In this document: positions 3,097-56,542 of the stretch, piece by piece
How positions within the stretch are numbered: position 1 is the first letter of the stretch
Layout of the letters: every line of letters starts with the position of its first letter
NCBI GenBank assembly: GCA_965223665.1
Contig: OZ245011.1
Location: forward strand, 3,712,001 to 3,776,000
Source: Nitrospinaceae bacterium
GTDB lineage: Bacteria > Nitrospinota > Nitrospinia > Nitrospinales > Nitrospinaceae
DNA: 64,000 bases
Direction: 5' to 3'
The notes under the pieces: model-generated
Seen by the model: only the letters and a program-made list of their open reading frames with translations
Told to the model about the DNA's origin: nothing
Databases searched by the model: none
Position numbers and translations under genes: made by a program

Positions 3097-3223
3097 AGCC
3101 TTCCCCTTAGCTTTCTAAGTTGTAAAATTGATTTCATGTTTTGTAAGGCTACTAAATGTTAAAGTGAACATGTGTTACGAGAATTGCGCAGATTGAAACC
3201 CCTTGGTATGGAAGGAATTTCTG

Positions 3224-6517: not shown

Positions 6518-7190
6518 GAAGGAGATTTAGTTGCGCAGCAAAATGAAGAAAAAAGCATCAATTTTTGAACTAAATTTCCTTGATTTCCCTTAAGCAACTA
6601 TTTCGTTAGAAACCCTGGATAATAATTAACTAAACAAATAATTTGTAAGTAAATTCTACCTTTACTTATATGAAATCAATAATTAATTCGTTTTAAGGAT
6701 GGAAGGATTAGAATTATATGTTTTTTGGAAAATATTATTAGTTTGAATGATTATATATTTATACAAATGGAAGGACAGTTGTGTTTATTGATAAGAAAAA
6801 AATAACAAGCTTATTTTCAAAGTCTTCAACATTATTATCCGGTTAGTTTAATAATTAAATTAAAATATTCATAAAAATTTTTGTAATCAAATATTAGATA
6901 AAATGGGATAAAGGTTTAACAATTAATTTGTTCGCTCAGTGGTATTATAAAAAAACTTTTTTTAATTTAATTGATAGGATGTTTAAAAAAAGTAATACTT
7001 TAATGACTTTTGTATAGCTGATTAGTTTGAATTTGAATATAATTGAAAGTCGAATTTCTTGGTTTTTTTTAATATATTGTTTGTCTTTACTTTTATTTAG
7101 GTATTGAGTTTTTACTTTGTAATAAAAGTCGAATTAGAGGATTTTGCAAGGTTCTATTCCAATTGTGAGTTAAAGAATAACAAGTCAATT

Positions 7191-20316: not shown

Positions 20317-21645
20317 ATGCAGGCTTATAAAAAAAATTCTAAGTTTTTTTCTACCATTCTTTTTTCCTGTTTCATTGCCTTAAGCTTTTTCCTCCATGGA
20401 TTGGCTCACGCACAAGATACTGAATATTTTGTAAATGTTAAAGATTTTGGCGCTAAAGGAGATGGGATTAACAACGACACTCAAGAAATACAAGCAGCTA
20501 TTAATTCATTATATGTTGATGGAAAAGGAGGTACCGTATATTTACCTCCGGGTAAGTATAGAATAGTAGGAACTGTAGGCTCTGGAGACACATATCAAGG
20601 AAGTACTATAAGGAACGGATTATATTTAAGAGAAAAAACAGGAACTCTTAATCGGCCGACGAATATTATTTCAGGGCTTAATAATCGTATAACCATAAGG
20701 GGAGCAGGTAAATCTACTGTTCTGGTAGGTGATTCAGATAATTTATTTATTATTAGAGTTTCAACTGGCTACGCAACGATTAAAGACCTAACAATAGATG
20801 GGGGGGTCTCGGTAGGGGACTTTACTTCCAAGGTTGTAGGAATCGCCATGGTTCCTGAGAATATGCAAAGTTCTTCTACTCTTACGGATATTAGCTATAA
20901 CGTTGTAGATAATGTACATATTGGCAACACTCAAGAAGGTATTTTAATGAGTTGTGGTCCAACTCGAGGTGAAAGTTTCTGTTATTGGAATTCCTTTTCC
21001 AATGTTTCTTTAAGAGATATGGTTCGAGGAATTTACATGAAAAGTGGTGTAAATGGTTCTCCAAGTATCAATAGGAACATGTTCTCGAATATCAATATGA
21101 ACACTATGAATGTAGGGTTTCATATTGAAAGTGGAGATACCAACACTTGCATGCACTGTACGTTCACAGATATTACGGTTGAAGGTTCCGGTGCGCCCAA
21201 ATCAACTGCCTCGGCTATTGTGATTGATTTTATGGATCAATGGAATCGTTGGGGAAATTCGAGCAATAGATTTTATAACGCCGTATTTGAAGGAAATGAA
21301 CGGGATATTGAAAACGCAGCGGATCGAACTGAGTTTTATGGAATTGAAACGGACCTAGATGGTGGAAAAAACTTATGGTCCCGAAGTCCAATGGCCATGA
21401 TTGGTACCAACGGATTTTTTTCAAAATGGCCCGGGTTATTTGTTGGTTATAAAACTATGGACCCATCTTCAAAGGTGGCTTTAGGTGTTCGATCGGGTTC
21501 TCAGGGATTTCTGCCACCTGTTATGAGCACAACTCAAAGAAATAACATGGGATCTGTTCCGGAGGGGTTGATTATTTATAACAGTTCTACAAAGAAACTA
21601 AATATTTTTTCTAATGGGGCTTGGAGGGCCTTTGTAAACCAATAA
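20317..21645 (+). CDS. Secreted pectate-lyase-3/tailspike-like beta-helix protein (paralog 2)
   Basis: Signal peptide ending AHA; VNVKDFGAKGDGINNDT...GGTVYLPPGKY; C-terminal GFLPPVMSTTQRN...GLIIYN...W. Confidence 0.82.
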   Translation: MQAYKKNSKFFSTILFSCFIALSFFLHGLAHAQDTEYFVNVKDFGAKGDGINNDTQEIQAAINSLYVDGKGGTVYLPPGKYRIVGTVGSGDTYQGSTIRNGLYLREKTGTLNRPTNIISGLNNRITIRGAGKSTVLVGDSDNLFIIRVSTGYATIKDLTIDGGVSVGDFTSKVVGIAMVPENMQSSSTLTDISYNVVDNVHIGNTQEGILMSCGPTRGESFCYWNSFSNVSLRDMVRGIYMKSGVNGSPSINRNMFSNINMNTMNVGFHIESGDTNTCMHCTFTDITVEGSGAPKSTASAIVIDFMDQWNRWGNSSNRFYNAVFEGNERDIENAADRTEFYGIETDLDGGKNLWSRSPMAMIGTNGFFSKWPGLFVGYKTMDPSSKVALGVRSGSQGFLPPVMSTTQRNNMGSVPEGLIIYNSSTKKLNIFSNGAWRAFVNQ

Positions 21646-21716: not shown

Positions 21717-24700
21717 ATGTTTAAAATTAAATTGGCAAATTTCCTTAAAGGGTATTTGGTTTTTGGCCTTTTCCTTACGGTACTTTCTCAACAAGCTTTT
21801 GCTGATGTTCAGCAGTTTTTGGACGGTGTTTACCCTGACTCTAGTTACTCCGGAACCAGGGACGCTTATCTCCAGGAAACTCGACCTAATGATGAATTTG
21901 GTACTTTGACTACCTTAAGAGCCGATGGGGAAAGTACCGAAAACGGTCAAACGGGCGAATACGTTTCAGTTATTAAATGGGATGTTTCCAGTATACCTTC
22001 AAATGCAATAATTAATTCAGTATCTATCCGCTTTGATGTTTCTAACTCAAGTTCTGGTACTTACAATGTATATAAAGTAAATAATAGCTGGACAGAAGTT
22101 GAAGTTGATTGGAATGATATTCCTGGAGCTTCTGGTGGTTCTGGGACCACAGTTTTAGGAAGTTTTAATCCAAGTACCACTGGGCTAAGATCTTTTTCAT
22201 TAAATTCCTCGGGAATTCAAGTAGTTCAGGATTGGGTAAGTGGGGCTTCAACAAATGATGGAATAATGATTAGAAGCGGGGGGACCACTGATGGAGTTGT
22301 TTTTGGCTCAAGAGAGGCTTCTCCTTCTGATCGTCCTAGGCTTACAATTGATTTTACCGTCCCTCCACCAGATGAAAATAATATTGTTGAGTTTTTAGAT
22401 GGTGTTCATCCGGATTCAAGTTATAGCGGTACTCAAGATTCCTATTTGAGGGAAACTCAACCTACCACGGAGTTTGGAAATCAAACTATTATAAGTGCAG
22501 ATGGATCAGATACTAGTGGTGGTCAAACGGGAGAATTGGTGGGGATAATAAAATGGGATATTTCTAGTATTCCTTCAAGTGCCGTGGTTAATTCAGTTAG
22601 CCTCCGTTTTGACATTACTAATGTAAGCCCAGGGGCTTATGATTTGTATGCAGTGAATACATCCTGGACAGAAGCGGGTGCAAATTGGAGTAATGTTATA
22701 GGAGCAGGAGGGGCTGGGTCTACTATCTTGGGAAGCTTTACTCCAAGCAGTACAGGACTTCAATCAATAAATTTGAATTCTGCAGGTGTTCAAGTAGTTC
22801 AAGGCTGGGTAAATAACTCCTCCACAAATAATGGATTTCTAATTCGCACAGCTGGTACTAATAATGGGGTTGATTTTTGGTCCAGCGAAGCCTCTGTTTC
22901 AGATAGACCAAAACTGACAATTGATTATGATTCTTCAGGGGGAGGAGGAGGTACTCCAGAAGATTTTACGGTGAATTTTTCCGATGGTACTCACCCCAAT
23001 TCGAGCTATAACGGGACAAGAGATGCCTATATTAGAGAGACGCAACCGAATGACGAATTCGGGACCGAATCTATTTTGCGTGCCGATGGATCCGATACAT
23101 CGGGTGGTCAAACCGGTGAATTGGCAAGTGTTATAAAATGGGATATGTCTTCTATTCCCACAGACTCAGTAGTGACTTCAGTTTCGATCCGATTTGATGT
23201 TTCTAATCAAAGTCCCGGAGCATATAATTTATATCAAGTCAATTTGCCCTGGACGGAAATCGAAATAGATTGGAACGATATTATTGGAACTTCTGGCGGA
23301 GCGGGAACTACCGTATTGGGAAGCTTTACTCCTAGCTCGACAGGACTTAATAACTTTACATTAAATAATTCAGGGATCCAAGTGGTTCAAGGTTGGGTCA
23401 ATAACCCCTCATCTAATAATGGGTTTTTGATTCGGAGTGCAGGGACCAATGATGGGGTGACGTTCTGGTCGCGTGAGGGAAATGTTGCAGACCGACCTCG
23501 GATAACTATTAATTATTCCAGTTCCGGCGGTGGAGGTGGAGGCTCTGGACCTGATACCACTCCACCTGTAGTTACAGCACCCCCTGATGTGACAGCCAAT
23601 TCGACGGGAACCTTAACTCAGGTAAATATTGGTACTGCTACAGCAACGGATAATGTTGAGGTTGCTTCAATTACTAATAATGCTCCTTCAGGAGGATATC
23701 CATTAGGGACGACAGTAGTAACTTGGACTGCCACAGATACTTCTGGTAATACAGGTACTGATACGCAATCCGTTACCGTGATTGATGGTCCTACGTCATC
23801 CACTACTGAGTATTTTGTTAATGTAAAAGATTTTGGCGCTACAGGAAATGGTGTGACCAATGATAGACCTGCCATTCAAGCTGCAATAGATTCTCTTTAT
23901 ACCAATAGCATTGGTGGTGGAACCGTGTATTTCCCACCAGGCACCTATCGTATATTTGCCACCTCTGGCTCTGGTGATATTTATCAGGGTGGAGTCATGA
24001 GAAATGGAATTCTTCTGCGTGATGAGAATGGTTCGAGTGAACATCCTTATGAAAACAATCGAATTAACCGCATTACGTTGCGTGGGGCAGGTAAAAGTTC
24101 TGTTTTAATAGGAAGTGGGGATACAAGAATGTTTATCATTCGTATTGCCACAAGCTATGTGACGATTAAAGACTTATATATTCGTGGAGGTATTGACTAT
24201 AAAACCTTTGGACGCAGGGTAATTGGGATTGGAATTGTTCCTGAAAACATGGGAAGTTCAAGCACCCCAGCCCACTTAAGTTACAATGTGATTGATAACG
24301 TAACTGTTACAGACTCCCAGGAAGGTGTCCTTATGATGTGTGGGCCGGGAGTTAGTGGAAGCCATTGTGGACACAATATGTTTAACAACCTTTCACTAAG
24401 GTTGATGACTCGCGGAATTTATATGGCAAGTGGAGTTCAAGGATCCTTGGGGAATTCGGCAAATGTAATTCGCAATGCGGGATTCAATTTTATGAATGTT
24501 GGATTACATATTGAAAGTGGCGATCATAATACTTGTTTTCACTGTTCCATAAACGATATTGAATTGACAGAAAGTCCTTATAATGGAGGGGTTCCCAAAC
24601 AAACTGCTACCTCAGTTGTAATTGAGGATCTTGACAAATGGAACCTTTGGGCAAATGTTAATAATCGTATTTATAATCTACCAAGCGAACATAATTCTCG

Positions 24701-25049
24701 GGATATTGAAAATGAGAGTTCCACCACTGAAATTTATGGAGCTTCTGGAGTTTCACTTGGAAAAACTAAATGGACTGAACCTCCTCAATTTATGACGAGT
24801 ACCAAAGGAAGTTATGTGAACAATAGTAGTGTAATTATTGGAGACTCTGGATTTGGTACTCCCCATCCTAATGTCATATTGGGGGTTTATTCAACAAGTA
24901 AAGGATTTCTCCCTCCAGGGTTATTTGCTACCCAAATAAGTGGAATGGGGACTTCCTCATTGCCTGAGGGATTAGTTATTTTTAATCGGAGTACAGGGAA
25001 TTTGCAAGTGTTTGATGGAAATCAATGGAGAGTTCAAGCACTTGAGTAA
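21717..25049 (+). CDS. Secreted multidomain protein: 3x DNRLRE-like, HYR, tailspike-like beta-helix (paralog 3)
   Basis: Signal peptide ending AFA; three ~195-aa repeats (DAYLQETRP...IKWDVSSIP...RPRLTI); HYR domain DTTPPVVTAP...TWTATDTSGN; VNVKDFGATGNG beta-helix; GFLPP...FDGNQW tail. Confidence 0.85.
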   Translation: MFKIKLANFLKGYLVFGLFLTVLSQQAFADVQQFLDGVYPDSSYSGTRDAYLQETRPNDEFGTLTTLRADGESTENGQTGEYVSVIKWDVSSIPSNAIINSVSIRFDVSNSSSGTYNVYKVNNSWTEVEVDWNDIPGASGGSGTTVLGSFNPSTTGLRSFSLNSSGIQVVQDWVSGASTNDGIMIRSGGTTDGVVFGSREASPSDRPRLTIDFTVPPPDENNIVEFLDGVHPDSSYSGTQDSYLRETQPTTEFGNQTIISADGSDTSGGQTGELVGIIKWDISSIPSSAVVNSVSLRFDITNVSPGAYDLYAVNTSWTEAGANWSNVIGAGGAGSTILGSFTPSSTGLQSINLNSAGVQVVQGWVNNSSTNNGFLIRTAGTNNGVDFWSSEASVSDRPKLTIDYDSSGGGGGTPEDFTVNFSDGTHPNSSYNGTRDAYIRETQPNDEFGTESILRADGSDTSGGQTGELASVIKWDMSSIPTDSVVTSVSIRFDVSNQSPGAYNLYQVNLPWTEIEIDWNDIIGTSGGAGTTVLGSFTPSSTGLNNFTLNNSGIQVVQGWVNNPSSNNGFLIRSAGTNDGVTFWSREGNVADRPRITINYSSSGGGGGGSGPDTTPPVVTAPPDVTANSTGTLTQVNIGTATATDNVEVASITNNAPSGGYPLGTTVVTWTATDTSGNTGTDTQSVTVIDGPTSSTTEYFVNVKDFGATGNGVTNDRPAIQAAIDSLYTNSIGGGTVYFPPGTYRIFATSGSGDIYQGGVMRNGILLRDENGSSEHPYENNRINRITLRGAGKSSVLIGSGDTRMFIIRIATSYVTIKDLYIRGGIDYKTFGRRVIGIGIVPENMGSSSTPAHLSYNVIDNVTVTDSQEGVLMMCGPGVSGSHCGHNMFNNLSLRLMTRGIYMASGVQGSLGNSANVIRNAGFNFMNVGLHIESGDHNTCFHCSINDIELTESPYNGGVPKQTATSVVIEDLDKWNLWANVNNRIYNLPSEHNSRDIENESSTTEIYGASGVSLGKTKWTEPPQFMTSTKGSYVNNSSVIIGDSGFGTPHPNVILGVYSTSKGFLPPGLFATQISGMGTSSLPEGLVIFNRSTGNLQVFDGNQWRVQALE
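21813..23516 (+). repeat. Three tandem intragenic DNRLRE-like domain repeats
   Basis: Units begin near 21813, 22389 and 22974 (FLDGVYPDSSYSGTRD / FLDGVHPDSSYSGTQD / FSDGTHPNSSYNGTRD); diverged at DNA level. Confidence 0.85.
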
Positions 25050-34614: not shown

Positions 34615-35804
34615 CTTCCCAGGAAGATCTCCAAAAAATTAAAATCCTCTTTCTTACCACTAATCTGGGAACGGGTGGTGCTGAAACCATGCTGTTAAAC
34701 TTCCTGGAACGCATTGATCGCAAAGTTTTTCAACCCTATGTAATTTCTCTAATAAGTATAGATAAAATTGGTGAAAAGATCCGAAACTTAGGAGTGCCCG
34801 TTTTTGCAATGGAATTAAATCCAGCTTCAGTCAATCCTTTTCCAATTTTAAGATTTTTAAAGCAAGTTCGAAAGATCAAACCAGAAATTATTCAGGGATG
34901 GATGTACCATGGGAATTTGTTTTCTTTAATAGGTAATTGGACTTTACGAAAGAAAGCATTGCTTTTTTGGAGTATTCATCACTCAGTTTATAGTTTGAAA
35001 AATGAAAAAAAGTTGACGGCTTTACTTATTCGTTTAAGTGCCAGGTTTTCTAGCAAAGTTAATAAAATTCATTACGTTGCTGAAGAATCAGCCAAGTTGC
35101 ATAAAATCATTGGATTTTGCGAAGATAACGCTATTTTGATTCCTAATGGATTTGATACTGATAAGTTTAAACCAGATTCCCATGCAAAGATTCAGTTGAG
35201 AAATGAATTAAGCATAACGGATGGTTCGTTATTGGTGGGTTTGGTTGCAAGATACCATCCAATGAAAGATCATAAAAATTTGATTCAAGCGGCAAAAATT
35301 GTAAAGGATCGTATTCCAAAGGTAAAATTCCTATTAGTTGGAAATGATATTGATGAAAAAAATATAGAGTTAAATAAATTAATTGATCAGTACGATTTAA
35401 AAAATCACGTTATACTATTAGGAGTAAGAGAAGATATTCCAAAGATTGTGGCCGCATTAGATGTTGCAGTTAACTGTTCCTATTCTGAAAGCTTTCCATT
35501 GGCTGTGGGAGAGGCAATGGCTGCAGGGGTTCCCTGTGTAGTAACAGATACTGGAGCGTGTGGTTGGGTTGTTGATAATACCGGGAGGGTTGTACCAGTA
35601 AAAGATTCTCCAGCTTTAGCCGAAGGAATCCTTGAATTATTGAGTTTAGAACCTAATGAAAGGGCTAATTTAGGTGAAAAGGCTAGAGAAAGAGTTCAAG
35701 AAAATTTTGCTTTAAATAAAATAGTTAAAAAATTTGAAAATCTTTATTTGGATGCTGTTAAAGAAAAAAATGAAACAGTTAATCCTTCCAATTCAACAGA
35801 TTGA
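34611..35804 (+). CDS. Glycosyltransferase family 4 (WbnK-like)
   Basis: GGAETML, QGWMYHGN, ARYHPMKDH, ESFPLAVGEAMA. Confidence 0.92.
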   Translation: MTSQEDLQKIKILFLTTNLGTGGAETMLLNFLERIDRKVFQPYVISLISIDKIGEKIRNLGVPVFAMELNPASVNPFPILRFLKQVRKIKPEIIQGWMYHGNLFSLIGNWTLRKKALLFWSIHHSVYSLKNEKKLTALLIRLSARFSSKVNKIHYVAEESAKLHKIIGFCEDNAILIPNGFDTDKFKPDSHAKIQLRNELSITDGSLLVGLVARYHPMKDHKNLIQAAKIVKDRIPKVKFLLVGNDIDEKNIELNKLIDQYDLKNHVILLGVREDIPKIVAALDVAVNCSYSESFPLAVGEAMAAGVPCVVTDTGACGWVVDNTGRVVPVKDSPALAEGILELLSLEPNERANLGEKARERVQENFALNKIVKKFENLYLDAVKEKNETVNPSNSTD

Positions 35805-37144
35805 TGAAGCTTAAAACCAAACTATTCTATTTAATTAGAAATAATTTATTTTATAAAAATTGGTATAAATTTTATCAAGATTTGTGGAAATTAGATCCCA
35901 CGTCTTGCCAGCTTCTTCTAAGAGATTTATTAGTTCATGCCCGTGAAAATGTTCCTTATTATAAGGACAAAATTCCTTTCGATAATAAACCAGAAAACCT
36001 GTTATCTCAGATCCCTATTTTAAGAAAAAACCAAATTCGACTTCACTTTGAAAACCTAAAAAGCACGAAAGTTGATTTAACGAAAATTTCTTTGCAAAGT
36101 TCTGGTGGTTCCACTGGTAAACCAATTACTCTAGTGATTGATAATGATTATTCAGAATGGTTGATTGCATCAGAAAATTATTACTATAAAAAGTACATGG
36201 GATTTCTTTTTGCTGAACCTACCAAAATAATTTTGTGGGGGGCTCATAGGGATATCAAACAATTTCAGGGGTTAAGGGCTAAGGTTTCTCACTATCTAAG
36301 TAACATTACTCTATTAAATGCTTTTGAAATTTCGGATCGTAAATTTGATGAATTTATTGAAATAATTAATAGTACAAAACCTGTTTTTTTAAGATCCTTT
36401 GCCGGGTCGTTGTTTTTGCTGGCCAAATATATTAAGGAAAAAAATATAAAAGTTTTTAAGCCAAAGTTTATTGGGACTTCTGCTGAAACTTTAAGGCCCT
36501 TCATGCGGGAGTTAATCGAAGAAGTTTTTGAAACACGGGTAAGAGATTATTATGGAAGTAGAGAGGTTGGTATTATTGCGGCAGAATGTAGAAAGGGGAA
36601 AATGCATACTTTGCCATTTTTCAACCATGTTGAAGTAGTAGACGGGAAAGGGGATTCGGTAAAGCCAGGTGAAGAGGGAGTTTTGTTAGTTACTGGTTTG
36701 AAGAATTATTCTATGCCCTTAATTCGATATGAAATTGGAGACACTGCAGTATTGGGAAGTTCTTGTGATTGTGGAGGAGATACTCCTGTATTAGAAAAGG
36801 TTACAGGAAGAATTACAGACCACTTTGTTACTTCCACTGGGAAAATGGTCCACGGACAATATTTTACTCGACTGTTTTATTTCAGCAAATGGGTAGGGGA
36901 GTTTCAGATATTGCAAAAAGACTTTAATTTAATTGAAATACAATATGTCCCAACTAATGATCCTTCACAAATGGAAATTGAGGAAATTAATATAAAAGTT
37001 CGTAAGGTTATGGGAAATGAATGTGAAATTAATTGGGTTAAAATGGATTCAATTCCCCCAAATGCGGTTGGAAAAAGATTGTTTACACGAAGTTTTGTGT
37101 TTGAACAAGGGATGGATTTTAATACAAAAGATATGGTGAAATGA
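35801..37144 (+). CDS. CapK-like adenylate-forming enzyme (paralog 3, within the EPS operon)
   Basis: SGGSTGKP, DYYGSREVG, MPLIRYEIGD; overlaps both neighbouring GT4 genes. Confidence 0.88.
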   Translation: MMKLKTKLFYLIRNNLFYKNWYKFYQDLWKLDPTSCQLLLRDLLVHARENVPYYKDKIPFDNKPENLLSQIPILRKNQIRLHFENLKSTKVDLTKISLQSSGGSTGKPITLVIDNDYSEWLIASENYYYKKYMGFLFAEPTKIILWGAHRDIKQFQGLRAKVSHYLSNITLLNAFEISDRKFDEFIEIINSTKPVFLRSFAGSLFLLAKYIKEKNIKVFKPKFIGTSAETLRPFMRELIEEVFETRVRDYYGSREVGIIAAECRKGKMHTLPFFNHVEVVDGKGDSVKPGEEGVLLVTGLKNYSMPLIRYEIGDTAVLGSSCDCGGDTPVLEKVTGRITDHFVTSTGKMVHGQYFTRLFYFSKWVGEFQILQKDFNLIEIQYVPTNDPSQMEIEEINIKVRKVMGNECEINWVKMDSIPPNAVGKRLFTRSFVFEQGMDFNTKDMVK

Positions 37145-38259: not shown

Positions 38260-38504
38260 GTAGAAGTAAAATCTAATTTATTCTCTCGGTCTAATTCCGT
38301 TCTTCCTCACACGCTAAAAACCTGTTATAATATTGTTTTTAAAAAGGTTGTGCTGTTTGAGTAAAAGAGGTTGTTAAATCTTTTTGTCATCATAATCTAT
38401 TTTTTCATTGGTTCCTTTTGGTTTTTCTAAAAAGGAGATAGGTTATTTGTATTTAAATTAATTAATATTGGTTTTATCCTTCCATTGATTATTTAAGGAA
38501 AACT

Positions 38505-39188
38505 ATGAACAAGGCCCAAACATTCCAAGATTTTTTAGTTAACCAAAGCGCCGAAATTTCTGTATGGGGATTTTTAGTAAATATCATTTTGGCCATTATT
38601 TTTTCATTTATATTGGCGCAAATGTATATTCGGTTTGGAAATGTACTTTCAAATCGAAAAATGTTCTCAAAGAACTTAATTTTTATATCGATGACTACTA
38701 TGCTGGTCATCACTATTGTGAAATCTTCTTTGGCGCTTTCTTTAGGTCTGGTGGGTGCTCTTTCAATTGTTCGTTTTCGCGCTGCTATAAAAGAACCTGA
38801 AGAATTGGCTTATTTGTTTTTGGCGATTGCAATTGGACTTGGTTTTGGAGCGAATCAGGGACTTATCACTATTTTGGCTTTTATAATTATATTGGGAGTA
38901 ATAATTTGGCTTAATTATTCTCATTCTGTTGAAGAAAGCCAAAACCTTCATTTAAGCATATTCTGTGATACCCAACCCAAACTGGAATTAAACCAATTGG
39001 TTTCTGAATTAAAAAAGCATTGTAATAAAGTAGTGTTGAAACGGTTTGATGAAGATAAGGACACAATAAACTCCACTTTCTTGGTGGAGTTTAAAGGTGC
39101 GGATGACTTAGAAGAAGCAAAAAAATCTCTCCAAAAAATAAATGAAACTGTAAAAATTACCTATTTGGATTCCCGCGGAGTTTTTTAA
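38505..39188 (+). CDS. DUF4956 family membrane protein
   Basis: KSSLALSLGLVGALSIVRFRAAIKEPEELAYLF signature; C-terminal soluble domain. Confidence 0.9.
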   Translation: MNKAQTFQDFLVNQSAEISVWGFLVNIILAIIFSFILAQMYIRFGNVLSNRKMFSKNLIFISMTTMLVITIVKSSLALSLGLVGALSIVRFRAAIKEPEELAYLFLAIAIGLGFGANQGLITILAFIIILGVIIWLNYSHSVEESQNLHLSIFCDTQPKLELNQLVSELKKHCNKVVLKRFDEDKDTINSTFLVEFKGADDLEEAKKSLQKINETVKITYLDSRGVF

Positions 39189-41861
39189 ATGTTAATCAAG
39201 GATGAGTATGGATTTACGAATACCATCCAAGGATTAGGACTTTTTTTTAAGAAAAGAAAGTTTCTAATTGGATTGGTGTTGTTTTGTTTTTATACCTTTT
39301 TGGTTTTTGGAGTATCTTCCTATTTGGTAAAACATGGTTTTTGGGGGACTTTTCTAAAACCATGGATAATTAAAAACGTAAATGTACCCATAGATTATAT
39401 AAAAAGCTTTTCTGCCCAACCGGAATCCATTGTTTTAGATATTAAACAAAAAGATGTTCTAAAGCTTGCCCATAAGAGAAAAGAAGCCTTATCCGTAGGT
39501 ACTCTTTACTATTCTTCTGAAGAAGATTGGGTCCCTGCCAAATTTACCAACAATAATAAAACGTACAAAGTCAAAATTCGGTTAAAAGGAACACGGTCTT
39601 CTCATTGGGAAGATGAAGAAGTTTGGTCTTACAAGGTAAAAATGAAAAAGTCGGATACTTTTATGGGGATGCGCAGATTTGCTTTGCAGGGACCACACAA
39701 CAGAAATTTCCTTAATGAATGGATGTACCAAAAATTATATAAATATTTAGGAGTTATTAGTCTACGGTACGACTTCGTTGAGGTAACGGTAAACGGAAAA
39801 AAAATGCCTGTTTATGCTGTCGAGGAAAATTTTGATAAAAGACTAATTGAAAATAATCAAAGAAGGGAAGGTCCCATTTTCCGAGCAAAAATGATTCCTT
39901 TTTTGACTGACGAACCGATTGATGTTTATGGAATGAGTAAATACAAAGATGATGCTTCCGCATTAAAATTAGTTCATTCCGTAGAGAGCTTGATGGAAGC
40001 TTTTCGATTAGGTACACGTTCTACTTCAGAGGTGTTTGATATTGAAATGTTGGCCAAATCTTTGGCAGGTATGGACTTGGGAGGAAGTTTCCACTCTGTG
40101 AATTATTCTAATATAAGGTTTTATTATAATCCAATCACCGGCCGGGTAGAGCCCATACCTTATGATAATCAACACCTTCAACCTTTAGAATCGACCCAAT
40201 TGCTAGGTGAGGGACATTGGATTTCTCCAGAAATTTATAAAGATATTGGAGGCAAAATATATATAGATGGAACTGAACGGGGTATGCATTGGTTGTTTCT
40301 ACTGTTTCAGGATCGGGTATTTTACAAAAAATATATTGAAGCCCTGGAAATGATTTCAAAGAAAGAATACCTGGATGGATTTTTTAACAGTATCCAAGAA
40401 GAACAAGAAGAAAAGTTAAATACTCTATATAAAAGTTGGCCTCAATATAAATTCGAGGGAAAAAAAATTATTTATAGTAACCAAGAGTATATTAGAAAAG
40501 TCCTGCACCCTGAAAAAGCCGCCTTAGCCTATTGGGAAGAAATTGACTCAAGTTCAAATACAATTTATTTAAATATTGCAAACATTCATTCTCTACCAAT
40601 TGAAATAATGAGTCTTGTTGTTTCAAATGATTTGGTTTTGGAACCCATCGGCGAACATATTCTGGTTGGGAAAAGACGCCGAGGAGGGCCTTTGCTGGCT
40701 GGTAATACGGACCTGAAAAATGTTTACGAAACGTTATTGATTGGAAGGGATGGAAACTCAAAGATTAAATACCACCGTATTGGTTTTAAAATTCCAGAGG
40801 GTATCCATTGGGATTCTGCGTTAAAATCAAATTTGAAAATTGGAACAAGGGTTTATGGAACGAAAAATTTAATTCAAGATTCTATAATTCCCTGGAATAA
40901 AGAAAGTGACTTGATGCGAATGCCTTCTAATGTAGATAAATTTTCCTTTCTCAAAATTGACTCTGATAAAAAAACGATTCAATTTAAAAGGGGAAGTTGG
41001 GTATTAGATTCTGATCTGATAGTGCCTTCGGGTTATCGTTTTGTGGCTGTAAAAGGTACTCAGGTAGAATTGAAAAACAAGGCAAAAATTATTTCATTCT
41101 CTCCAGTGGAATTTATTGGATCACCAGAAGATCCTGTTAAATTTTTCTCGAACAATCATGCGGGACAGGGAATAATTATTATGAACGCAAAGGATGAATC
41201 TATTGTAAATCATGCAGAGTTTTCTGGTTTATCTAATCCCTTTTTATCCGGATGGTCTGTTACTGGGGCCGTTACTTTTCATGAATCACCCGCGACATTT
41301 ACAAATGTTAAATTTTTAAACAATTATTCCGAAGATGGGCTTAACCTTGTAAGGTCAAAATTCTTTATGGACAAAGTTTTGTTTCAGGGAACTTTTTCCG
41401 ATGCGTTTGATTCAGACTTTTCGACAGGAAAAATAAAATCCATTACCTTTTTAAATTGCGGTAATGATGGAATCGATATATCCGGTAGCCAGGTAGAAGT
41501 CGACCATATTGAAATCAACGGCGCTGGAGATAAAGGGGTTAGTGCTGGAGAAAATAGCCAACTTTCAATTAATACCCTGGTGGGTAAAAACGCAAATATT
41601 CTCGTTGCTAGTAAAGATTTATCCAGGGTGAAAATAAAAAAAGCGAAACTTGAAAATTCAAAATTTGGGTTTGCGGTTTTTCAAAAGAAAAGCGAGTTTG
41701 GTGCTGCTTCCATTGATGTTGACCAATTGGAAATGGCCGATTTAGAGTTACCTTTCCTAATTGAAAAAGGCTCTTCATTAATTGTCGAGGGCGAGCAAAT
41801 TAAAAGTAAGTATAAGAATATTAAAAAGTTGCTTTATCCTCCAAACCCTGATCAATCTTAA
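39189..41861 (+). CDS. Membrane-anchored CotH-like kinase fused to C-terminal right-handed beta-helix
   Basis: N-terminal TM; VKIRLKG, EENFDK, NIRFYYNPITGRVEPIPYD; C-terminal DAFDSD / NDGIDISGS / GDKGVSAGE rungs. Confidence 0.82.
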   Translation: MLIKDEYGFTNTIQGLGLFFKKRKFLIGLVLFCFYTFLVFGVSSYLVKHGFWGTFLKPWIIKNVNVPIDYIKSFSAQPESIVLDIKQKDVLKLAHKRKEALSVGTLYYSSEEDWVPAKFTNNNKTYKVKIRLKGTRSSHWEDEEVWSYKVKMKKSDTFMGMRRFALQGPHNRNFLNEWMYQKLYKYLGVISLRYDFVEVTVNGKKMPVYAVEENFDKRLIENNQRREGPIFRAKMIPFLTDEPIDVYGMSKYKDDASALKLVHSVESLMEAFRLGTRSTSEVFDIEMLAKSLAGMDLGGSFHSVNYSNIRFYYNPITGRVEPIPYDNQHLQPLESTQLLGEGHWISPEIYKDIGGKIYIDGTERGMHWLFLLFQDRVFYKKYIEALEMISKKEYLDGFFNSIQEEQEEKLNTLYKSWPQYKFEGKKIIYSNQEYIRKVLHPEKAALAYWEEIDSSSNTIYLNIANIHSLPIEIMSLVVSNDLVLEPIGEHILVGKRRRGGPLLAGNTDLKNVYETLLIGRDGNSKIKYHRIGFKIPEGIHWDSALKSNLKIGTRVYGTKNLIQDSIIPWNKESDLMRMPSNVDKFSFLKIDSDKKTIQFKRGSWVLDSDLIVPSGYRFVAVKGTQVELKNKAKIISFSPVEFIGSPEDPVKFFSNNHAGQGIIIMNAKDESIVNHAEFSGLSNPFLSGWSVTGAVTFHESPATFTNVKFLNNYSEDGLNLVRSKFFMDKVLFQGTFSDAFDSDFSTGKIKSITFLNCGNDGIDISGSQVEVDHIEINGAGDKGVSAGENSQLSINTLVGKNANILVASKDLSRVKIKKAKLENSKFGFAVFQKKSEFGAASIDVDQLEMADLELPFLIEKGSSLIVEGEQIKSKYKNIKKLLYPPNPDQS

Positions 41862-41884
41862 GGGATAAGTTTACCTGAGTTCTT

Positions 41885-42571
41885 ATGGATGGAATTGAGT
41901 CTTATAGATATGAGAGAAAGTTTTTGGTGACGGCTCTTTCTTATGAAGAGTTAAATCAAAAAATCCTCCTCCATCCTGCCATATTTCAGCCGATTTATCA
42001 TAAACGTTACGTAAACAATATTTACTTTGACAGCCCAGATTTAACCAGTTTTGTTGACAATGTTGAAGGAGTTGGAAAAAGAACAAAATTTAGGATTAGA
42101 TGGTATGGATCTTTATCAGGGAAAATTCAAAAGCCAGTTTTGGAAATTAAAAATAAAACTGGATTTCTATGTAGTAAAGAATTGTATCCTATAGAGGGTT
42201 TTACCATAGACGAAGAATTTTCAATTAAAAAGGTTATGGACAGTGTAACGCGTTCGAAAATACCTAAAAGTGTTGTTGTTCAATTGGGTCTATTAGAGCC
42301 CGTTTTAATTAATAGATATTTAAGAAACTATTTTTTATCCATTGATGGCGATTTTAGAATTACTATCGACAGGGAATTAAGTTTTTTCCCCTTTGATTTA
42401 TCTTTTCCAAGGTTATTGGATCACGAAATGAAAGAATCGTTTAGTATTCTAGAACTAAAATATGCTTTAGAAAAGGACGATGAAGCTCAGAGAATTTCAA
42501 ATGCCTTTGATTTTCGCCTTACAAAAAGTTCCAAATACGTAAATGGCGTTTTTCGTTTAATGGCGGAATAA
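41885..42571 (+). CDS. VTC-domain (polyphosphate polymerase / TTM fold) protein
   Basis: RYERKF, NIYFD, KFRIRWY, LEIK, RITID, LELKY, SKY. Confidence 0.9.
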   Translation: MDGIESYRYERKFLVTALSYEELNQKILLHPAIFQPIYHKRYVNNIYFDSPDLTSFVDNVEGVGKRTKFRIRWYGSLSGKIQKPVLEIKNKTGFLCSKELYPIEGFTIDEEFSIKKVMDSVTRSKIPKSVVVQLGLLEPVLINRYLRNYFLSIDGDFRITIDRELSFFPFDLSFPRLLDHEMKESFSILELKYALEKDDEAQRISNAFDFRLTKSSKYVNGVFRLMAE

Positions 42572-50465: not shown

Positions 50466-51791
50466 CTAATCTGCCGATTTATTACCTAAGGTTAAAGTGA
50501 AAGTTGATCCATTGCCCTGAGAGCTTTTTGCAGTAATATTGCCTCCGTGCCGCTCCATTATTTTATGGCAAATAGCGAGGCCCATTCCTGTTCCTTCCTT
50601 TTCACTCCTACCATGAAGCCTTTCAAATGGTTTGAAAATTCGGTTATTGAACTTTTCATTAAAACCAATTCCATTATCGCTAACGGATATTTCCCATTTT
50701 TCTTTGTCTACAGGATGACTGGAAATAGAAATTTCAGGATTAGAGTCTGGTTTAGAAAATGTAATGGCATTATTAATTAATTGGGTAAAAAGTTGTCGCA
50801 TTTGAACTTTATCTACACAAAGAATGGGAAGTTCTTCGATATAAACTTTTGCTTTGGATCTGGCTATTTTGCTTTCTAGATCTAGAAGTGCTTCGTTGAC
50901 AACTTTTTCGATAGGGGTGCTTTCAAACTCGCATGATTTCGTGGAGATTCTTGTTAATTGAAGTAAGGCATCAATCAACTTTTGCATATGATTGGTTGCC
51001 TTGGACATCACTTTAATATATTCCTTAGCTTTTGGATCCAGTAAATTTTGGAATTTCGTTTGAAGTCTTTCTCCAAACGTAATCACTTTTCTCAAAGGTT
51101 CCTGTAAATCATGGGAGGCGGTATAAGCAAAATCTTTTAGCTCCTGAATATGTGTTTTAAGTTCTTCCGTGGTATTTTCTAATTCGACGGTACGTTTCTG
51201 CACCTTTTTTTCCAGAGATTTATTTTGGTCATTTAGCAGGTCATATAACGAACCGTTTTCTAGTGCATATGCAGTATGATGCATAACAATTGTAAGTAAT
51301 GTTGAAACCTCTGAAGGTATGTGTCGAGTATTTTTTTCAAGTCGGGCTAATACCATACCTTTGACTTTATTTTTTGTCGATAATATGTGTAAAAGTAACT
51401 TTTCTTGGAAATATTTGCTTTCTACAATGATGGCTCTATTTTGTTTTAAAGCCCAGGCAAAAGCTCCCTTTTCAATTTGATAATCTAATTCTAATCGAAG
51501 TTGATCGTTGTCTTCCTTTGGTTCTCCATTCACTAACTTGAAGCTTTTATCCGTTTCACTTACCTGAAAAAAACCAACGGATTTAAATTTTATTAATTGT
51601 TTTAAATAGTAGTTGGTTTTTTCAAAAATTTGTTGAGGGGTTGTGGACTTAGGAACATATCGATGCATTTCCCCCATAGAAGCTACTAATTCTAATGCGG
51701 AAAAGTACCATCTATTTTCATTTTCTAAATAAGAAATCCGAGCTTTTAACTTTTGAATGTCATCACGGTTTAAAGTTCCTAATTTATCCAT
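50466..51791 (-). CDS. Cytoplasmic GAF-domain sensor histidine kinase
   Basis: FAYTASHDLQEPLR H-box, NAITF, DNGIG, GTGMGLAIC. Confidence 0.93.
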   Translation of the reverse strand: MDKLGTLNRDDIQKLKARISYLENENRWYFSALELVASMGEMHRYVPKSTTPQQIFEKTNYYLKQLIKFKSVGFFQVSETDKSFKLVNGEPKEDNDQLRLELDYQIEKGAFAWALKQNRAIIVESKYFQEKLLLHILSTKNKVKGMVLARLEKNTRHIPSEVSTLLTIVMHHTAYALENGSLYDLLNDQNKSLEKKVQKRTVELENTTEELKTHIQELKDFAYTASHDLQEPLRKVITFGERLQTKFQNLLDPKAKEYIKVMSKATNHMQKLIDALLQLTRISTKSCEFESTPIEKVVNEALLDLESKIARSKAKVYIEELPILCVDKVQMRQLFTQLINNAITFSKPDSNPEISISSHPVDKEKWEISVSDNGIGFNEKFNNRIFKPFERLHGRSEKEGTGMGLAICHKIMERHGGNITAKSSQGNGSTFTLTLGNKSAD

Positions 51792-51800
51792 GAATTTTTA

Positions 51801-52649
51801 TTACCTCGATAAAACTATTTCTACGTTCTCTTCATATTCCGGCCCCACTTGATTCCAAACCTGACTCATAACTGCCGGAGACAAGTCTACTGTTTCAAAA
51901 GCTTCCGCTTCTAATGGAGGGAGATGAGGATCTCCACTTGATCCTAATTCCATGGCCTTGGCAATAATATCAGCCAAATGGACTAAAGCGGTTCCTATTG
52001 GAAACCGTTGTGCTTCCAGTGGCTTATGATGGCAAGAAATGTATTCCTCCAGGCTTAGAGGTAATTTCCATGCTTTGGCCAAACAGGCTCCTACTTCAGT
52101 GTGATCAAAACCTAAAACTTCTTTTTCAATCTTATGAATTAGTCCTTTTTCTTCTTTGTTTCGATAAAATATTTCTTGAGCCTGCTCAGGAAGATTTTCT
52201 AGAATAATTAATCGTCCCACATCATGAAGGATCCCGGCTAAATAAAAACGCTCGGGATTGGGTTCTCTCCGATGAATAGCAAGGTTTCTAGCAATAATTC
52301 CCACTGCGAGGCTGTGTCGCCAGAATTGCTCCATATTTATGTTCTCTTCAGAAATTCCATTAAAAGAGGTAAGAACGGTAGTGGCTAAAGCCAATTCATA
52401 CAATTGCTCTGTGCCAACCAATGAAATGGCATGGGTAATGGTTTCTATTGCCGAAGGAAAATTAAATAAAGAACTGTTTACAATTTTTAAGAGTTTTACG
52501 CTTAAAGCAGTATCTAAACTTATAATTTTAGCTATATCCGAGTAACTGCTATTGGGATCGTGAAGAATATCGTGCATCATTAAAAATGATTCTGGTAACG
52601 AAGAAACTCGGGTCGAACCAGTAATTAAATCCTTGGCTTTACTTTCCAT
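51801..52649 (-). CDS. HDOD domain protein
   Basis: SLP, DTALSVKLLKIVNS, FWRHS, AGILHDVG, GFDH, WKLP. Confidence 0.93.
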   Translation of the reverse strand: MESKAKDLITGSTRVSSLPESFLMMHDILHDPNSSYSDIAKIISLDTALSVKLLKIVNSSLFNFPSAIETITHAISLVGTEQLYELALATTVLTSFNGISEENINMEQFWRHSLAVGIIARNLAIHRREPNPERFYLAGILHDVGRLIILENLPEQAQEIFYRNKEEKGLIHKIEKEVLGFDHTEVGACLAKAWKLPLSLEEYISCHHKPLEAQRFPIGTALVHLADIIAKAMELGSSGDPHLPPLEAEAFETVDLSPAVMSQVWNQVGPEYEENVEIVLSR

Positions 52650-54898: not shown

Positions 54899-55831
54899 AT
54901 GGCCATTTCTCGGGACGGAAATACTCAATATGAGTCTCCAGAGTTATCTTTTGAAGAAAAATCAGAGAAGTTAAGATTGGAGATTGAAAAACTTTTGGAG
55001 AAAGATAGTTCCAGTTTAGTGCTCCGCGGAAAATATTTTTCAACGGATGAGATGACGATTCTCTCCCAATTCGAACCCGTCCAGTCAATAAGATCTTTAG
55101 ATATAAGTGATAACCAAATTGGTAATGAAGGTCTTAAAATTATATTTGAGTCGAAAAATTTTGAAAATTTAGAAGAACTTAATCTTTCTATAAATTTTAT
55201 TACCAAAGATGGGATTGTAGAAATTTCTGAGTCAGAAGAAGTTAAAATAAAGCGCCTTAAAGTTTTACACCTGGAAGATAATAAATTAATTGACGAAGCG
55301 GCGATAGCACTGGTGAATTCATCAAATTTTTGTCATTTAGAAACTCTAAATATTGGATGGAATGAGGTGGGTAATGAGACCGTAATAGCCCTTGGAAAAA
55401 GTAATTCGATGAAAAACCTTAAATCTTTGGATTTAGAAAGAAATTATGTGGATCAAGAGGGTGTTAAAGGGTTGTGCGAAGGGGGGGCGTTGGAAAATTT
55501 AGAAAATTTAAACCTGTCCTCTAATAAATTAGGTGACCCTGGGGCAATTGCTTTAGCCAGTGGGAAGCCTCTACCCAATTTGAAATATTTATGGCTCACG
55601 AATAACTCCATTGGAGATGAGGGTGCAAAAATGATTGGAGAATCGAATAACTTTTCGATCCTTGAGAAACTGTATATCGGCCGAAACTACTTCCAGGAAC
55701 CTGGTGGAGATGCTCTATACAATACAAAGACTATGCCAAACCTAAAAACTTTAGTCCTGAGAGAAGGGGTTGAGTCGACCCCGGGTTACGTAAATTATTC
55801 TCGTCCTGAATTATTGCGTCCGGGCCATTAA
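54899..55831 (+). CDS. RI-like leucine-rich repeat protein
   Basis: ~28-aa repeats LxxLxLxxNxIGDEGAxxL. Confidence 0.88.
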   Translation: MAISRDGNTQYESPELSFEEKSEKLRLEIEKLLEKDSSSLVLRGKYFSTDEMTILSQFEPVQSIRSLDISDNQIGNEGLKIIFESKNFENLEELNLSINFITKDGIVEISESEEVKIKRLKVLHLEDNKLIDEAAIALVNSSNFCHLETLNIGWNEVGNETVIALGKSNSMKNLKSLDLERNYVDQEGVKGLCEGGALENLENLNLSSNKLGDPGAIALASGKPLPNLKYLWLTNNSIGDEGAKMIGESNNFSILEKLYIGRNYFQEPGGDALYNTKTMPNLKTLVLREGVESTPGYVNYSRPELLRPGH

Positions 55832-55867: not shown

Positions 55868-56542
55868 TTAAAAAACTTTTAGCTTTTCCAATTTAGTAAG
55901 TTTAGAAGAATTACGAAGTGCCTGTTTGGCATCTTCACTTTTGACCCGATTTCCTCCCAAGTGAAGATAAGTAAGGTTTGATAAGTTATCCGAATTTGCT
56001 ATCGCTAATGCGCCTTCATCACCCAATCTATTATCCACTAAACTTAATGAAGTAACTTTTGTAAGCAAGTTTGAAGAGGCTAAAAATTTACCTCCCTCGG
56101 GTCCAATACCATTGCACTCTAAATTAAGGGTTTCTACATTTTTAAATTTGGGGCACTCAGCAATAATTTTAACTCCCTCATCCCCCAAGTCATTGGAACC
56201 TAAATGTAAGTAATCTATATGGCCTAAATAGGGGGAATCTACCAGAATTTTCAAGGCCTCAGCTGTCAAACGATTGTGAGTTATGATTAAACTTGTGACA
56301 GTTTGAATGGGTTCCAGATCAGCAACCAGCTTTGCCAACTCAATTGGATGGTCGTCATTCTCGGCGTTATGACCAGTTTTTGCAAAGATATAACTATCCT
56401 GGATTTTTAATATTTTTTTTTCCTTAATGCACTCAAAAATAACTTTTTGTACGGGGGTAAAATTAGCACCTTCATCGCCATAGTTTTCACCATCATTTAT
56501 AAGTTGTTCCCAGTTCTTAATTTTATTTGGCGGCTTGGACAT
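55868..56542 (-). CDS. RI-like leucine-rich repeat protein
   Basis: LHLGSNDLGDEGV, LNLECNGIGPEG, LSLVDNRLGDEGA. Confidence 0.88.
   Translation of the reverse strand: MSKPPNKIKNWEQLINDGENYGDEGANFTPVQKVIFECIKEKKILKIQDSYIFAKTGHNAENDDHPIELAKLVADLEPIQTVTSLIITHNRLTAEALKILVDSPYLGHIDYLHLGSNDLGDEGVKIIAECPKFKNVETLNLECNGIGPEGGKFLASSNLLTKVTSLSLVDNRLGDEGALAIANSDNLSNLTYLHLGGNRVKSEDAKQALRNSSKLTKLEKLKVF

Follow-up and report, generated by a model that had tools for sequence, protein, structure and literature searches.

A conserved DUF4956, CotH/beta-helix and VTC gene cassette that may link triphosphate chemistry to a surface kinase-like enzyme

What energizes kinase-like enzymes outside the prokaryotic cytoplasm, and is polyphosphate (polyP) deliberately exported by prokaryotes? 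For both questions, a cassette of a Nitrospinaceae bacterium (GenBank assembly GCA_965223665.1, contig OZ245011.1) offers a concrete three-protein test system. The window analyzed here is a stretch of 64,000 nucleotides (positions 3,712,001 to 3,776,000 of the forward strand; coordinates below count from its first letter). Inside an exopolysaccharide (EPS) locus it carries genes for a DUF4956 membrane protein, a CotH-like protein fused to a beta-helix, and a VTC-type triphosphate tunnel enzyme, and the question is why these three stand side by side. The trio is a deeply conserved cassette. Judged by the predicted features of its proteins, it represents a variation on the VTC theme in prokaryotes, in which another membrane partner is used and a surface enzyme is added. 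We tentatively propose, with the balance still somewhat against it, that the three proteins form one envelope machine, which would couple cytoplasmic triphosphate or polyP chemistry to the kinase-like enzyme on the outer face. The genes and the parts of their products were located as follows.

38505-39188, + strand: DUF4956 membrane protein gene, open reading frame (ORF) of 227 aa; predicted transmembrane (TM) helices at residues 20-44, 51-72, 75-92, 98-115 and 119-141; C-terminal ferredoxin-like (ACT/PII/MgtC-C-like) domain at residues 146-222
39189-41861, + strand: CotH-like/beta-helix protein gene, ORF of 890 aa, whole gene
39261-39317, + strand: single N-terminal TM anchor of the CotH protein, residues 25-43, after KKRK, from the hydropathy scan
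39423-40508, + strand: CotH kinase-like domain, about residues 79-440
40521-40883, + strand: middle beta-strand region, about residues 445-565, disordered at 498-524, no Pfam match (AlphaFold2 model)
40950-41786, + strand: right-handed parallel beta-helix, about residues 588-866, strands in the AlphaFold2 model, predicted local distance difference test (pLDDT) mostly above 90
41885-42571, + strand: VTC-type triphosphate tunnel enzyme gene, ORF of 228 aa

The initial annotation had described three tightly packed genes of these families, and both the layout and the family identities were upheld. The ORFs fill 38505-42571 in one direction, with a gap of 0 bp between DUF4956 and CotH and of 23 bp between CotH and VTC. 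Each Pfam match exceeded its gathering score: DUF4956 (PF16316, E 1.4e-16, 61.1 bits against a cut-off of 30.6), CotH (PF08757, E 2e-12, 47.7 bits against 23.8, residues 145-436), and VTC (PF09359, E 6.7e-29, 101.5 bits against 23, with residues 8-223 on profile positions 2-232 of 235). In an NCBIfam search, no model matched any of the three proteins.

For the cassette survey, one genome per species was used; 536 relatives of the CotH/beta-helix protein were confirmed and 80 loci were taken (cited below as L plus a number). ORFs were called in six frames and searched iteratively with the three window proteins, and L028, with no CotH ORF, was dropped. DUF4956 lay directly upstream of CotH on the same strand in 57 of the 72 loci with at least 750 nt upstream. 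VTC lay directly downstream in 41 of the 61 loci with at least 800 nt downstream, and in 7 more it followed a gene of about 1 kb. When only the 50 two-sided loci were counted (at least 750 nt upstream and at least 2000 nt downstream of CotH), 33 had adjacent DUF4956-CotH-VTC genes and 5 had the same order with one inserted gene, so that the window gene order was kept in 38; another 7 had all three genes in a different order. All three were thus present in 45/50, in archaea as well as in bacteria, which extends the recurrence in bacteria that had been claimed for the trio. Chance adjacency was ruled out by these synteny counts. The DUF4956-CotH gap was 10 nt or less in 49 of 60 junctions (median, 0.5 nt), which suggests translational coupling of the two genes.

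The loci span many bacterial phyla, the candidate phyla radiation (CPR), and archaea. Record titles assign 14 of the 80 loci to archaea (Methanosarcinales, Woese-, Pace-, and Nanoarchaeota, and others) and several to CPR bacteria. Pairwise distances of the three proteins correlated (r 0.68-0.73; none of 999 permutations reached such values), as shared ancestry of the hosts would yield too. In a quick maximum-likelihood tree (midpoint root, many rows of deviant composition), archaeal sequences fell in at least three places among bacterial ones, and inter-domain gene transfer would fit this tree without being proved by it. The cassette occurs in Methanosarcina, including a complete genome (L047), and in genome-reduced CPR and DPANN lineages. 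Methanosarcina is genetically tractable. A Nanoarchaeota single-cell genome holds two cassettes (L072:5255-9287 and, on the - strand, L072:11090-14567), with a Polysacc_synt flippase between them; the second, on the opposite strand, is the more divergent.

The side of the membrane that each protein faces was judged from a hydropathy scan, the positive-inside rule, and relatives rather than with a dedicated predictor. The scan detected a single hydrophobic segment in the CotH protein and several in that of DUF4956 but found none in the VTC enzyme; the small multi-TM protein of the initial annotation corresponds to the five predicted helices of DUF4956. Since the CotH anchor follows KKRK, its N terminus would lie inside and its C terminus outside. 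Arg and Lys abound in the DUF4956 loops that follow helices 1 and 3 but not at its N terminus, which by the same rule points to an N-out/C-in arrangement. Some relatives begin with a signal peptide followed by a lectin-like domain, which likewise suggests that the DUF4956 N terminus is outside and the ACT-like domain inside. Parts of a paper on Streptococcus intermedius predict secretion of CotH and describe a DUF4956-like protein with TM helices and an ACT domain, the latter predicted to be intracellular. The four lines agree: VTC and the DUF4956 ACT-like domain are most likely inside and CotH/beta-helix outside. Extracytoplasmic CotH, as first supposed, is most likely on account of the KKRK anchor and the S. 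intermedius prediction.

The VTC protein appears polymerase-like, with a caveat that is weighed below. It consists of a single Pfam domain and has no hydrophobic segment; Pfam and hydropathy found neither an SPX domain nor a Vtc1-type three-helix TM domain in its 228 aa, and no CYTH match at E<=0.01. A profile of 50 orthologues matched the tunnel domains of yeast Vtc2, Vtc4, and Vtc3 with E values of 8e-8 to 2e-4 (Vtc4, 1e-6). In these 50 sequences, E10, K12, R70, R72, W73, Y74, E87, K89, Y145, R147, E190, and K192 were invariant, and R8, S216, and K217 were conserved in at least 90%. Passages of a cryo-electron microscopy preprint on VTC give K200, R264, R266, K281, Y359, R361, S457, and K458 as the triphosphate ligands of Vtc4 and E426 as its Mn ligand; K458 is described there as the sole ligand that differs in the inactive Vtc2 and Vtc3, where it is Ile or Leu. 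Aligned pairs between the window enzyme and Vtc4 were K12/K200, R70-R72/R264-R266, Y145-R147/Y359-R361, and S216-K217/S457-K458, while K89/K281 and E190/E426 would pair by spacing and strand pattern only. The K217 motif SSKY aligned with FSKF of Vtc4; in the same alignment, Vtc2 has FSIF. The earlier description of a soluble VTC enzyme with ExK and basic tunnel motifs is thus matched by a Vtc4-like residue set and by the lack of a hydrophobic segment.

According to passages of a paper on the mechanism of triphosphate tunnel metalloenzymes (TTMs), hydrolases and cyclases of this fold have an acidic patch, made of the two Glu of ExExK and a Glu two residues after an invariant Glu. The patch binds a second, catalytic metal, and Vtc4 has basic residues instead. 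The window enzyme reads R8-x-E10-x-K12 and E190-x-K192, so that two mapped patch positions are basic, as in Vtc4, and one of the three or four acidic-patch Glu is present at the mapped positions.

From these features, a route across the membrane can be drawn for the proposed machine. The soluble VTC enzyme would polymerize phosphate from ATP in the manner of yeast Vtc4, as its residues suggest. DUF4956, with an invariant basic cytoplasmic loop and an ACT-like sensor, may receive the product and may pass it, or its phosphoryl groups, across the membrane; gene linkage and topology are what point to both steps. Outside, where ATP is lacking, the anchored CotH-like domain would use the VTC product to phosphorylate or polyphosphorylate the surface polymer that the Wzx/Wzy locus produces, while the beta-helix would bind a ligand shared by every host. 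Where other genomes add an exported metallophosphoesterase, that enzyme might trim the product or reverse the reaction.

The yeast VTC complex resembles this arrangement in several respects. It has a cytoplasmic TTM tunnel domain with the same triphosphate residues, including the Vtc4-specific Lys, and a small multi-pass membrane partner (for the window, a partnership suggested by genetic linkage alone). In both, the product would reach the topologically outer side, in the window as a prediction from genes alone, and regulation would fall to a separate domain, SPX in yeast and an ACT-like one in the window system. In contrast, the tunnel enzyme of the window is a free protein of 228 aa without SPX or TM regions, and the five-helix DUF4956 takes the place of the Vtc1-type three-helix domain, which forms a pentameric pore with rings of Lys and Arg. 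E10 stands where Vtc4 has Thr, and the passages on the yeast complex describe no counterpart of the extracytoplasmic kinase-like partner.

The kinase-like domain was recognized by its fold as well as by Pfam. In Foldseek, the AlphaFold2 model of the CotH/beta-helix protein (pLDDT 84.2; long N-terminal helix at residues 12-49) matched Bacillus cereus CotH (5jd9/5jda) with an E value of 3e-13 over 393-396 columns and a TM-score of 0.68-0.69 of the target. In phmmer, the N-lobe matched 5jd9 (E 7.7e-5). Homologues of about 870-890 aa numbered 378 at E<=1e-3. Among 25 sequences, K133, E212, E213, D284, H302, N308, Y312, and N314 were invariant, and D296 and D326 were each conserved in 24. The window protein scores low in Pfam, at 47.7 bits, whereas the canonical CotH proteins of L061 and L068 reach 193-201 bits.

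In the beta-helix family, the catalytic-loop stretch reads D296-L-x-G-x-x-H302-x-x-x-x-x-N308-x-R-F-Y-Y-N-P...P-x-(Y/F)-D326. Canonical CotH proteins have the motifs DWPxNN and, further on, YDxDWGFG; in Bacillus subtilis CotH, whose substrates are CotB and CotG, D228 and D251 are needed for activity. In the window family, the position five before N308 varies, and none of the five or six residues that precede N308 is an invariant Asp. The invariant residue adjoining this position is H302, with D296 found 12 residues ahead of N308. Judged by spacing and predicted secondary structure, the metal-binding Asp is likely D326, which lies 18 residues after N308, the B. subtilis spacing if the Asn follows D228 by five (DWPxNN), and H302 appears to sit about where the catalytic Asp is expected. 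Sequence comparisons between the two CotH types reached the N-lobe at most: hhalign of the family against the canonical CotH of L061 or against a 20-sequence canonical profile aligned the N-lobe only (probability, 12% and 6%, respectively). With its filters off, hmmsearch aligned only the N-lobe in the canonical CotHs of L061 and L068 and only a short FD...H...N stretch in the second CotH of L072. Against the Protein Data Bank (PDB), the family profile, the canonical CotH of L061, and the C-lobe alone gave no match, and the canonical profile matched with its N-terminal CHB_HEX_C-like region only. The two Bacteroidota loci contain both CotH types in one cassette (L061:1450-8583 and L068:1476-8610), in the order DUF4956, VTC, canonical CotH with CHB_HEX_C, Wzy_C, and then CotH/beta-helix.

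The window protein shares with Bacillus CotH (5jd9/5jda) the Pfam family, the overall fold, and an alignable N-lobe. Bacillus CotH is, however, a spore-coat protein (359 aa in the 5jda chain), unlike the membrane-anchored, outward-facing, beta-helix-fused window protein, and it acts where ATP is available. Fam20-type kinases of the secretory pathway, among them the xylose kinase Fam20B, have a kinase fold and work on the noncytoplasmic side, one of them on a sugar. They use ATP imported into the Golgi lumen, and we know of no polyP-making partner of these kinases.

The fusion of CotH to a beta-helix, which had been noted at first sight, was confirmed by AlphaFold2 strands, Foldseek, and the Pfam families of homologues: PF13229 and PF12708 are precomputed on many CotH/beta-helix relatives, while Pfam gave no beta-helix match in the window protein itself. 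After CotH, the Foldseek matches of the model were GH87, GH28, phage tailspike, AlgE4/AlgG, and PL6 proteins (E 2e-5 to 9e-3), which matched its last 280 residues at a sequence identity of only 8-16%. On successive coils, an invariant ladder of D738, D760, K809, D810, S812, K834, and E836 was found in the 25 sequences, and D741, D743, D763, S765, S767, D781, K782, E788, and K833 were present in 23 or 24 of them. The groove residues do not vary between Nitrospinota, Methanosarcina, and CPR bacteria, and the glycan genes beside the cassette differ between loci. Since the groove is constant although the surrounding glycan genes change, a ligand common to all hosts would fit better than a host-specific polysaccharide. 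Candidates for such a ligand would be polyP (possibly metal bound), a shared acceptor group, or a partner protein. Thus, of the initial proposal of a glycan held by the beta-helix, the helix stands and the glycan ligand is argued against.

DUF4956 was modeled (pLDDT 78.5) as five membrane helices followed by a beta-alpha-beta-beta-alpha-beta domain. In Foldseek, the C-terminal domain alone was matched, and weakly, by SbtB, ACT domains, and the MgtC C-domain 2lqj (E 3e-3 to 2e-2; 2.4e-2 for 2lqj), and by sequence the PDB yielded chance-level matches alone (E >0.02), all to the C-terminal 40-70 residues. The stretch from K73 to A116 is almost invariant among 61 orthologues and holds two short Gly/Ser-rich helices and the loop R90-F-R92-A-A-I-K96-E-P-E-E. 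Like MgtC/SapB (YhiD) proteins, DUF4956 combines five TM helices with a cytoplasmic ACT-like domain; unlike them, it has no Pfam match to MgtC/SapB (PF02308) at E<=0.01. By language-model features, an MgtC cluster lies near DUF4956 (score 0.78), which is a lead only. MgtC is known as a regulator of other proteins, as cited in the S. intermedius paper, and not as a conduit. Complex prediction for DUF4956 with VTC (with an alignment for each) scored 0.00 in both runs, which is no evidence either way.

Longer relatives of DUF4956 numbered 266, and in 4/4 scanned the fused partner was a 3-keto-disaccharide-hydrolase-like (lectin-fold) domain. Both fused relatives whose sequences were inspected begin with a signal peptide and also have an acidic linker, and some sources name the fused proteins "YhiD." Many DUF4956 proteins of this lectin-fused kind (among P0241-P0360; e.g., P0317, 465 aa) were seen, largely from Chloroflexota/Anaerolineae bins where named. 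Among the matches listed (120 of the 266), no VTC-DUF4956 fusion was found, which is weak as evidence of absence.

The association of these gene families is already in print; new here are its breadth, the beta-helix form, the topology, the fourth partner, and the residue analysis. Passages of a paper on Gram-positive Pel describe a set of accessory genes contiguous with the pelDEADAFG genes of streptococci and clostridia, namely cotH, a polyP-polymerase gene, DUF4956, and DUF4832 (in bifidobacteria, a cyclase/phosphodiesterase gene stands in for DUF4832), and suggest that CotH might regulate Pel via protein phosphorylation. Parts of the S. intermedius paper (SIR_1592-1594), where the mutant phenotypes are modest, report that deletion of the DUF4956-like gene gave more Pel and deletion of cotH less, that either deletion more than halved aggregation in artificial sputum medium, that a link to phosphate metabolism is possible, and that the three-gene arrangement was not found outside pel loci. 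In a locus table for Clostridium perfringens, VTC, a membrane protein annotated as "tubulin/FtsZ," and CotH adjoin a chitin-synthase-like gene. The S. intermedius system is a distant variant of the window cassette. As far as the Pel passages go, the same three families lie side by side at an exopolysaccharide operon, with these differences: the pel CotH carries an FN3 domain and the window CotH a beta-helix, the host locus is of the synthase type (pelDEADAFG) and not of the Wzx/Wzy type, and the fourth gene is a DUF4832 glycoside hydrolase. The beta-helix form, in contrast, is spread over many phyla and archaea. A search of the openly licensed PMC and bioRxiv literature turned up no proposal or test of polyP export in prokaryotes or of polyP use by their CotH proteins, and no paper that assigns a mechanism to the prokaryotic trio.

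A pathway shared by the three proteins need not involve polyP crossing the membrane. CotH/beta-helix could be a surface enzyme that processes or binds glycans (a hydrolase, lyase, epimerase, or ATP-independent binder), and DUF4956 with VTC a cytoplasmic sensing or phosphate-homeostasis unit that tunes the polysaccharide. The resemblance of the beta-helix to GH87, GH28, PL6, and AlgG/AlgE4, together with its invariant Asp/Lys ladder, suits such an enzyme. The ACT/PII/MgtC-C-like C-domain of DUF4956, the nearby MgtC cluster (the same lead only), and the name "YhiD" given by some sources to its fused relatives suit such a sensor. The S. intermedius mutants, as far as those passages describe them, have a regulatory look as well: more Pel without the DUF4956-like protein, less without CotH, and a silent VTC mutant. 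This account leaves unexplained why a Vtc4-type enzyme with the polymerase Lys recurs in 45 of 50 loci in two domains and why an exported phosphoesterase joins the cassette, and a groove that is invariant across hosts with differing glycan genes fits a glycan-specific enzyme poorly. We consider it somewhat unlikely.

Quite unlikely, in our judgment, is that VTC is merely a tri- or polyphosphatase or a nucleotide cyclase whose product serves as a cytoplasmic signal, so that its adjacency to CotH would reflect shared regulation and not a shared substrate. According to the passages on TTM mechanism, many TTM enzymes with a Vtc4-like tunnel are hydrolases or cyclases, and AtTTM3, which is Vtc4-like and was expected to be a polymerase, proved to be a hydrolase; the invariant E10 of the window family points the same way. 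Against this stand the single acidic-patch Glu out of three or four, with R8 and K192 at other mapped positions, the alignment of K217 with the polymerase Lys K458, and the Pfam match to VTC with none to CYTH at E<=0.01.

The genes next to the cassette bear on what the outer enzyme does. Two genes on each side and every gene inside the cassette were scanned (215 + 15 proteins). In 38 of 67 loci, glycan synthesis or modification genes lay within two genes of the cassette, by a manual classification that is borderline for L031, L041, L047, L069, and L072. These families include GT1, GT2, and GT4, Wzy_C, Polysacc_synt flippases, priming transferases, sugar epimerases and dehydrogenases, and acyl- and deacetylases. 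A calcineurin-like metallophosphoesterase was inside or adjoining the cassette in 11/68 loci: inside in L007, L016, L029, L050, L075, and L079, beside it in L027, L046, L051, and L074, and in three copies in L062 (1119-5091), two of them with a purple-acid-phosphatase N-domain. The gene inserted in the L009 cassette had no Pfam match. On manual reading, 13 of 14 Metallophos proteins inspected had a hydrophobic or twin-arginine signal-like start, and these proteins are therefore probably exported. As a recurrent fourth member, an exported metallophosphoesterase would add weight to extracytoplasmic phosphate chemistry. L079 also encodes an alkaline phosphatase, and no Pst/PhoU-type families were seen among the flanking genes scanned.

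The phosphoesterase-rich cassettes of L062 and L079 have sulfatase, sulfotransferase, and alkaline phosphatase genes on their flanks (L062:8542-10448 and L079:21-2032), and these neighbors hint at anionic decoration of surface polymers. In two KSB1-like bins, an approximately 570-aa fusion of a methyltransferase-like and an APH-type phosphotransferase part lies just upstream of the cassette (L018:113-1816 and L029:4103-5827).

An inward scavenger, in which CotH/beta-helix and exported phosphoesterases cut external polyP or phosphopolymers, DUF4956 imports phosphate, and VTC stores or hydrolyzes it, would account for the exported Metallophos, purple-acid-phosphatase-like, and alkaline phosphatase genes at some cassettes (L062, L079, and others), for the hydrolase-type Glu of VTC, and perhaps for an archaeon reported, with no enzymes named and no link to the trio genes, to grow on external polyP, but it has no need of a kinase-fold domain, the usual context is glycan synthesis (38/67 loci) with no Pst/PhoU-type families in the flanks scanned, and no phosphatase lies near the window cassette, so it is very improbable. 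The glycan-processing, hydrolase or signal, and scavenger accounts overlap in part.

The polyP machine would be the best single explanation for the joint occurrence of a Vtc4-type enzyme, a membrane protein, an outward kinase-fold enzyme, and an exported phosphoesterase, a claim that we hold tentatively and short of even confidence. Its most complete version, ATP-independent extracytoplasmic (poly)phosphorylation, is unlikely. In that version, a VTC-DUF4956 polyP synthase-exporter would feed a CotH domain with an invariant His for Asp, the beta-helix would bind polyP or a universal acceptor, and the system would have spread between Bacteria, CPR, and Archaea.

Several observations weigh against the polyP machine. 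The main ones are the retained E10, the silent S. intermedius VTC mutant, and the absence of channel likeness in DUF4956. At the second Glu position of ExExK, Vtc4 has Thr but the window family has the invariant E10, and because the enzyme keeps it, a hydrolase or other two-metal reaction has to be reckoned with. In the S. intermedius passages, deletion of the VTC gene caused no aggregation phenotype, and this silent mutant together with the opposite Pel shifts fits a simple linear pathway poorly in that organism. A Foldseek search with the TM part of DUF4956 returned no solved channel analogue, and the weak MgtC likeness speaks for a regulator no less than for a conduit. In addition, no sequence alignment of the CotH C-lobe to canonical CotH was obtained, which bears on the predicted kinase competence, and no report of a CotH- or Fam20-fold enzyme using polyP was found in the openly licensed PMC and bioRxiv literature. 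The invariance of the beta-helix groove argues against a simple version in which the helix holds a glycan. Finally, one or both partners had no nearby copy in 5 of the 50 two-sided loci.

If the polyP machine is real, prokaryotic polyP synthesis would not be a matter of PPK1 and PPK2 alone, and three widespread families, DUF4956, bacterial VTC, and non-spore CotH, would gain a function. The accessory genes of Gram-positive pel operons would be explained and a post-export phosphorylation of surface polymers revealed. Even if the model fails, the cassette points to a conserved, unexplained factor that regulates or processes surface polysaccharides.

In the window, the trio is embedded in a Wzx/Wzy-type polysaccharide locus, and its early placement within an EPS cluster agrees with Pfam scans, which found glycan genes on both flanks. 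Upstream, on the + strand, are genes for a Wzc-like chain-length/tyrosine-kinase protein, an epimerase, a MurJ/MatE-type flippase, GT1 glycosyltransferases, a Wzy_C polymerase, an AMP-binding-like protein, and a GT4 enzyme. Downstream, on the opposite strand, are an epimerase, a Bac_transf priming transferase, a Poly_export/SLBB protein, and a beta-barrel porin. The closest CotH relative (87% identity) is found in a Nitrospinaceae genome bin (L001) with the same neighbor genes. The window ORFs scanned include no Pel genes and no DUF4832, which sets the locus apart from the pel accessory cassette, and no metallophosphoesterase or phosphatase near the trio. Rfam matched no family in the window. 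Two features precede the cassette.

38260-38504, + strand: intergenic region upstream of the cassette, 245 bp
38323-38331, + strand: exact extended -10 element TGnTATAAT, read directly, a consensus match only and not functional evidence

An AAGGA ribosome-binding site precedes the ATG at 38505. Given the exact extended -10 in the 245-bp gap, the trio may be transcribed from a promoter of its own inside the EPS operon. A consensus scan for promoters and terminators found 8 sites against 16 expected from shuffled sequence, and the extended -10 at 38323-38331 was not among them.

Other genes of the window were also recorded. Two AMP-binding-like ORFs with weak Pfam scores lie at 35801-37144 and 7104-8531; the former is part of the EPS operon and is kept in the Nitrospinaceae relative (L001). 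Three more pectate-lyase-like beta-helix proteins are encoded at 3203-4720, 20317-21645, and 21717-25049, the largest of which (1110 aa) also has CBM96, disaggregatase-repeat, and HYR domains. One protein joins an adenylate/guanylate cyclase domain to an HD_5 (HD-GYP-like) domain (11537-13519, - strand), and an HDOD protein and a histidine kinase are encoded at 50466-52649. Two leucine-rich-repeat proteins, encoded on opposite strands at 54899-55831 and 55868-56542, are unusual for a free-living bacterium.

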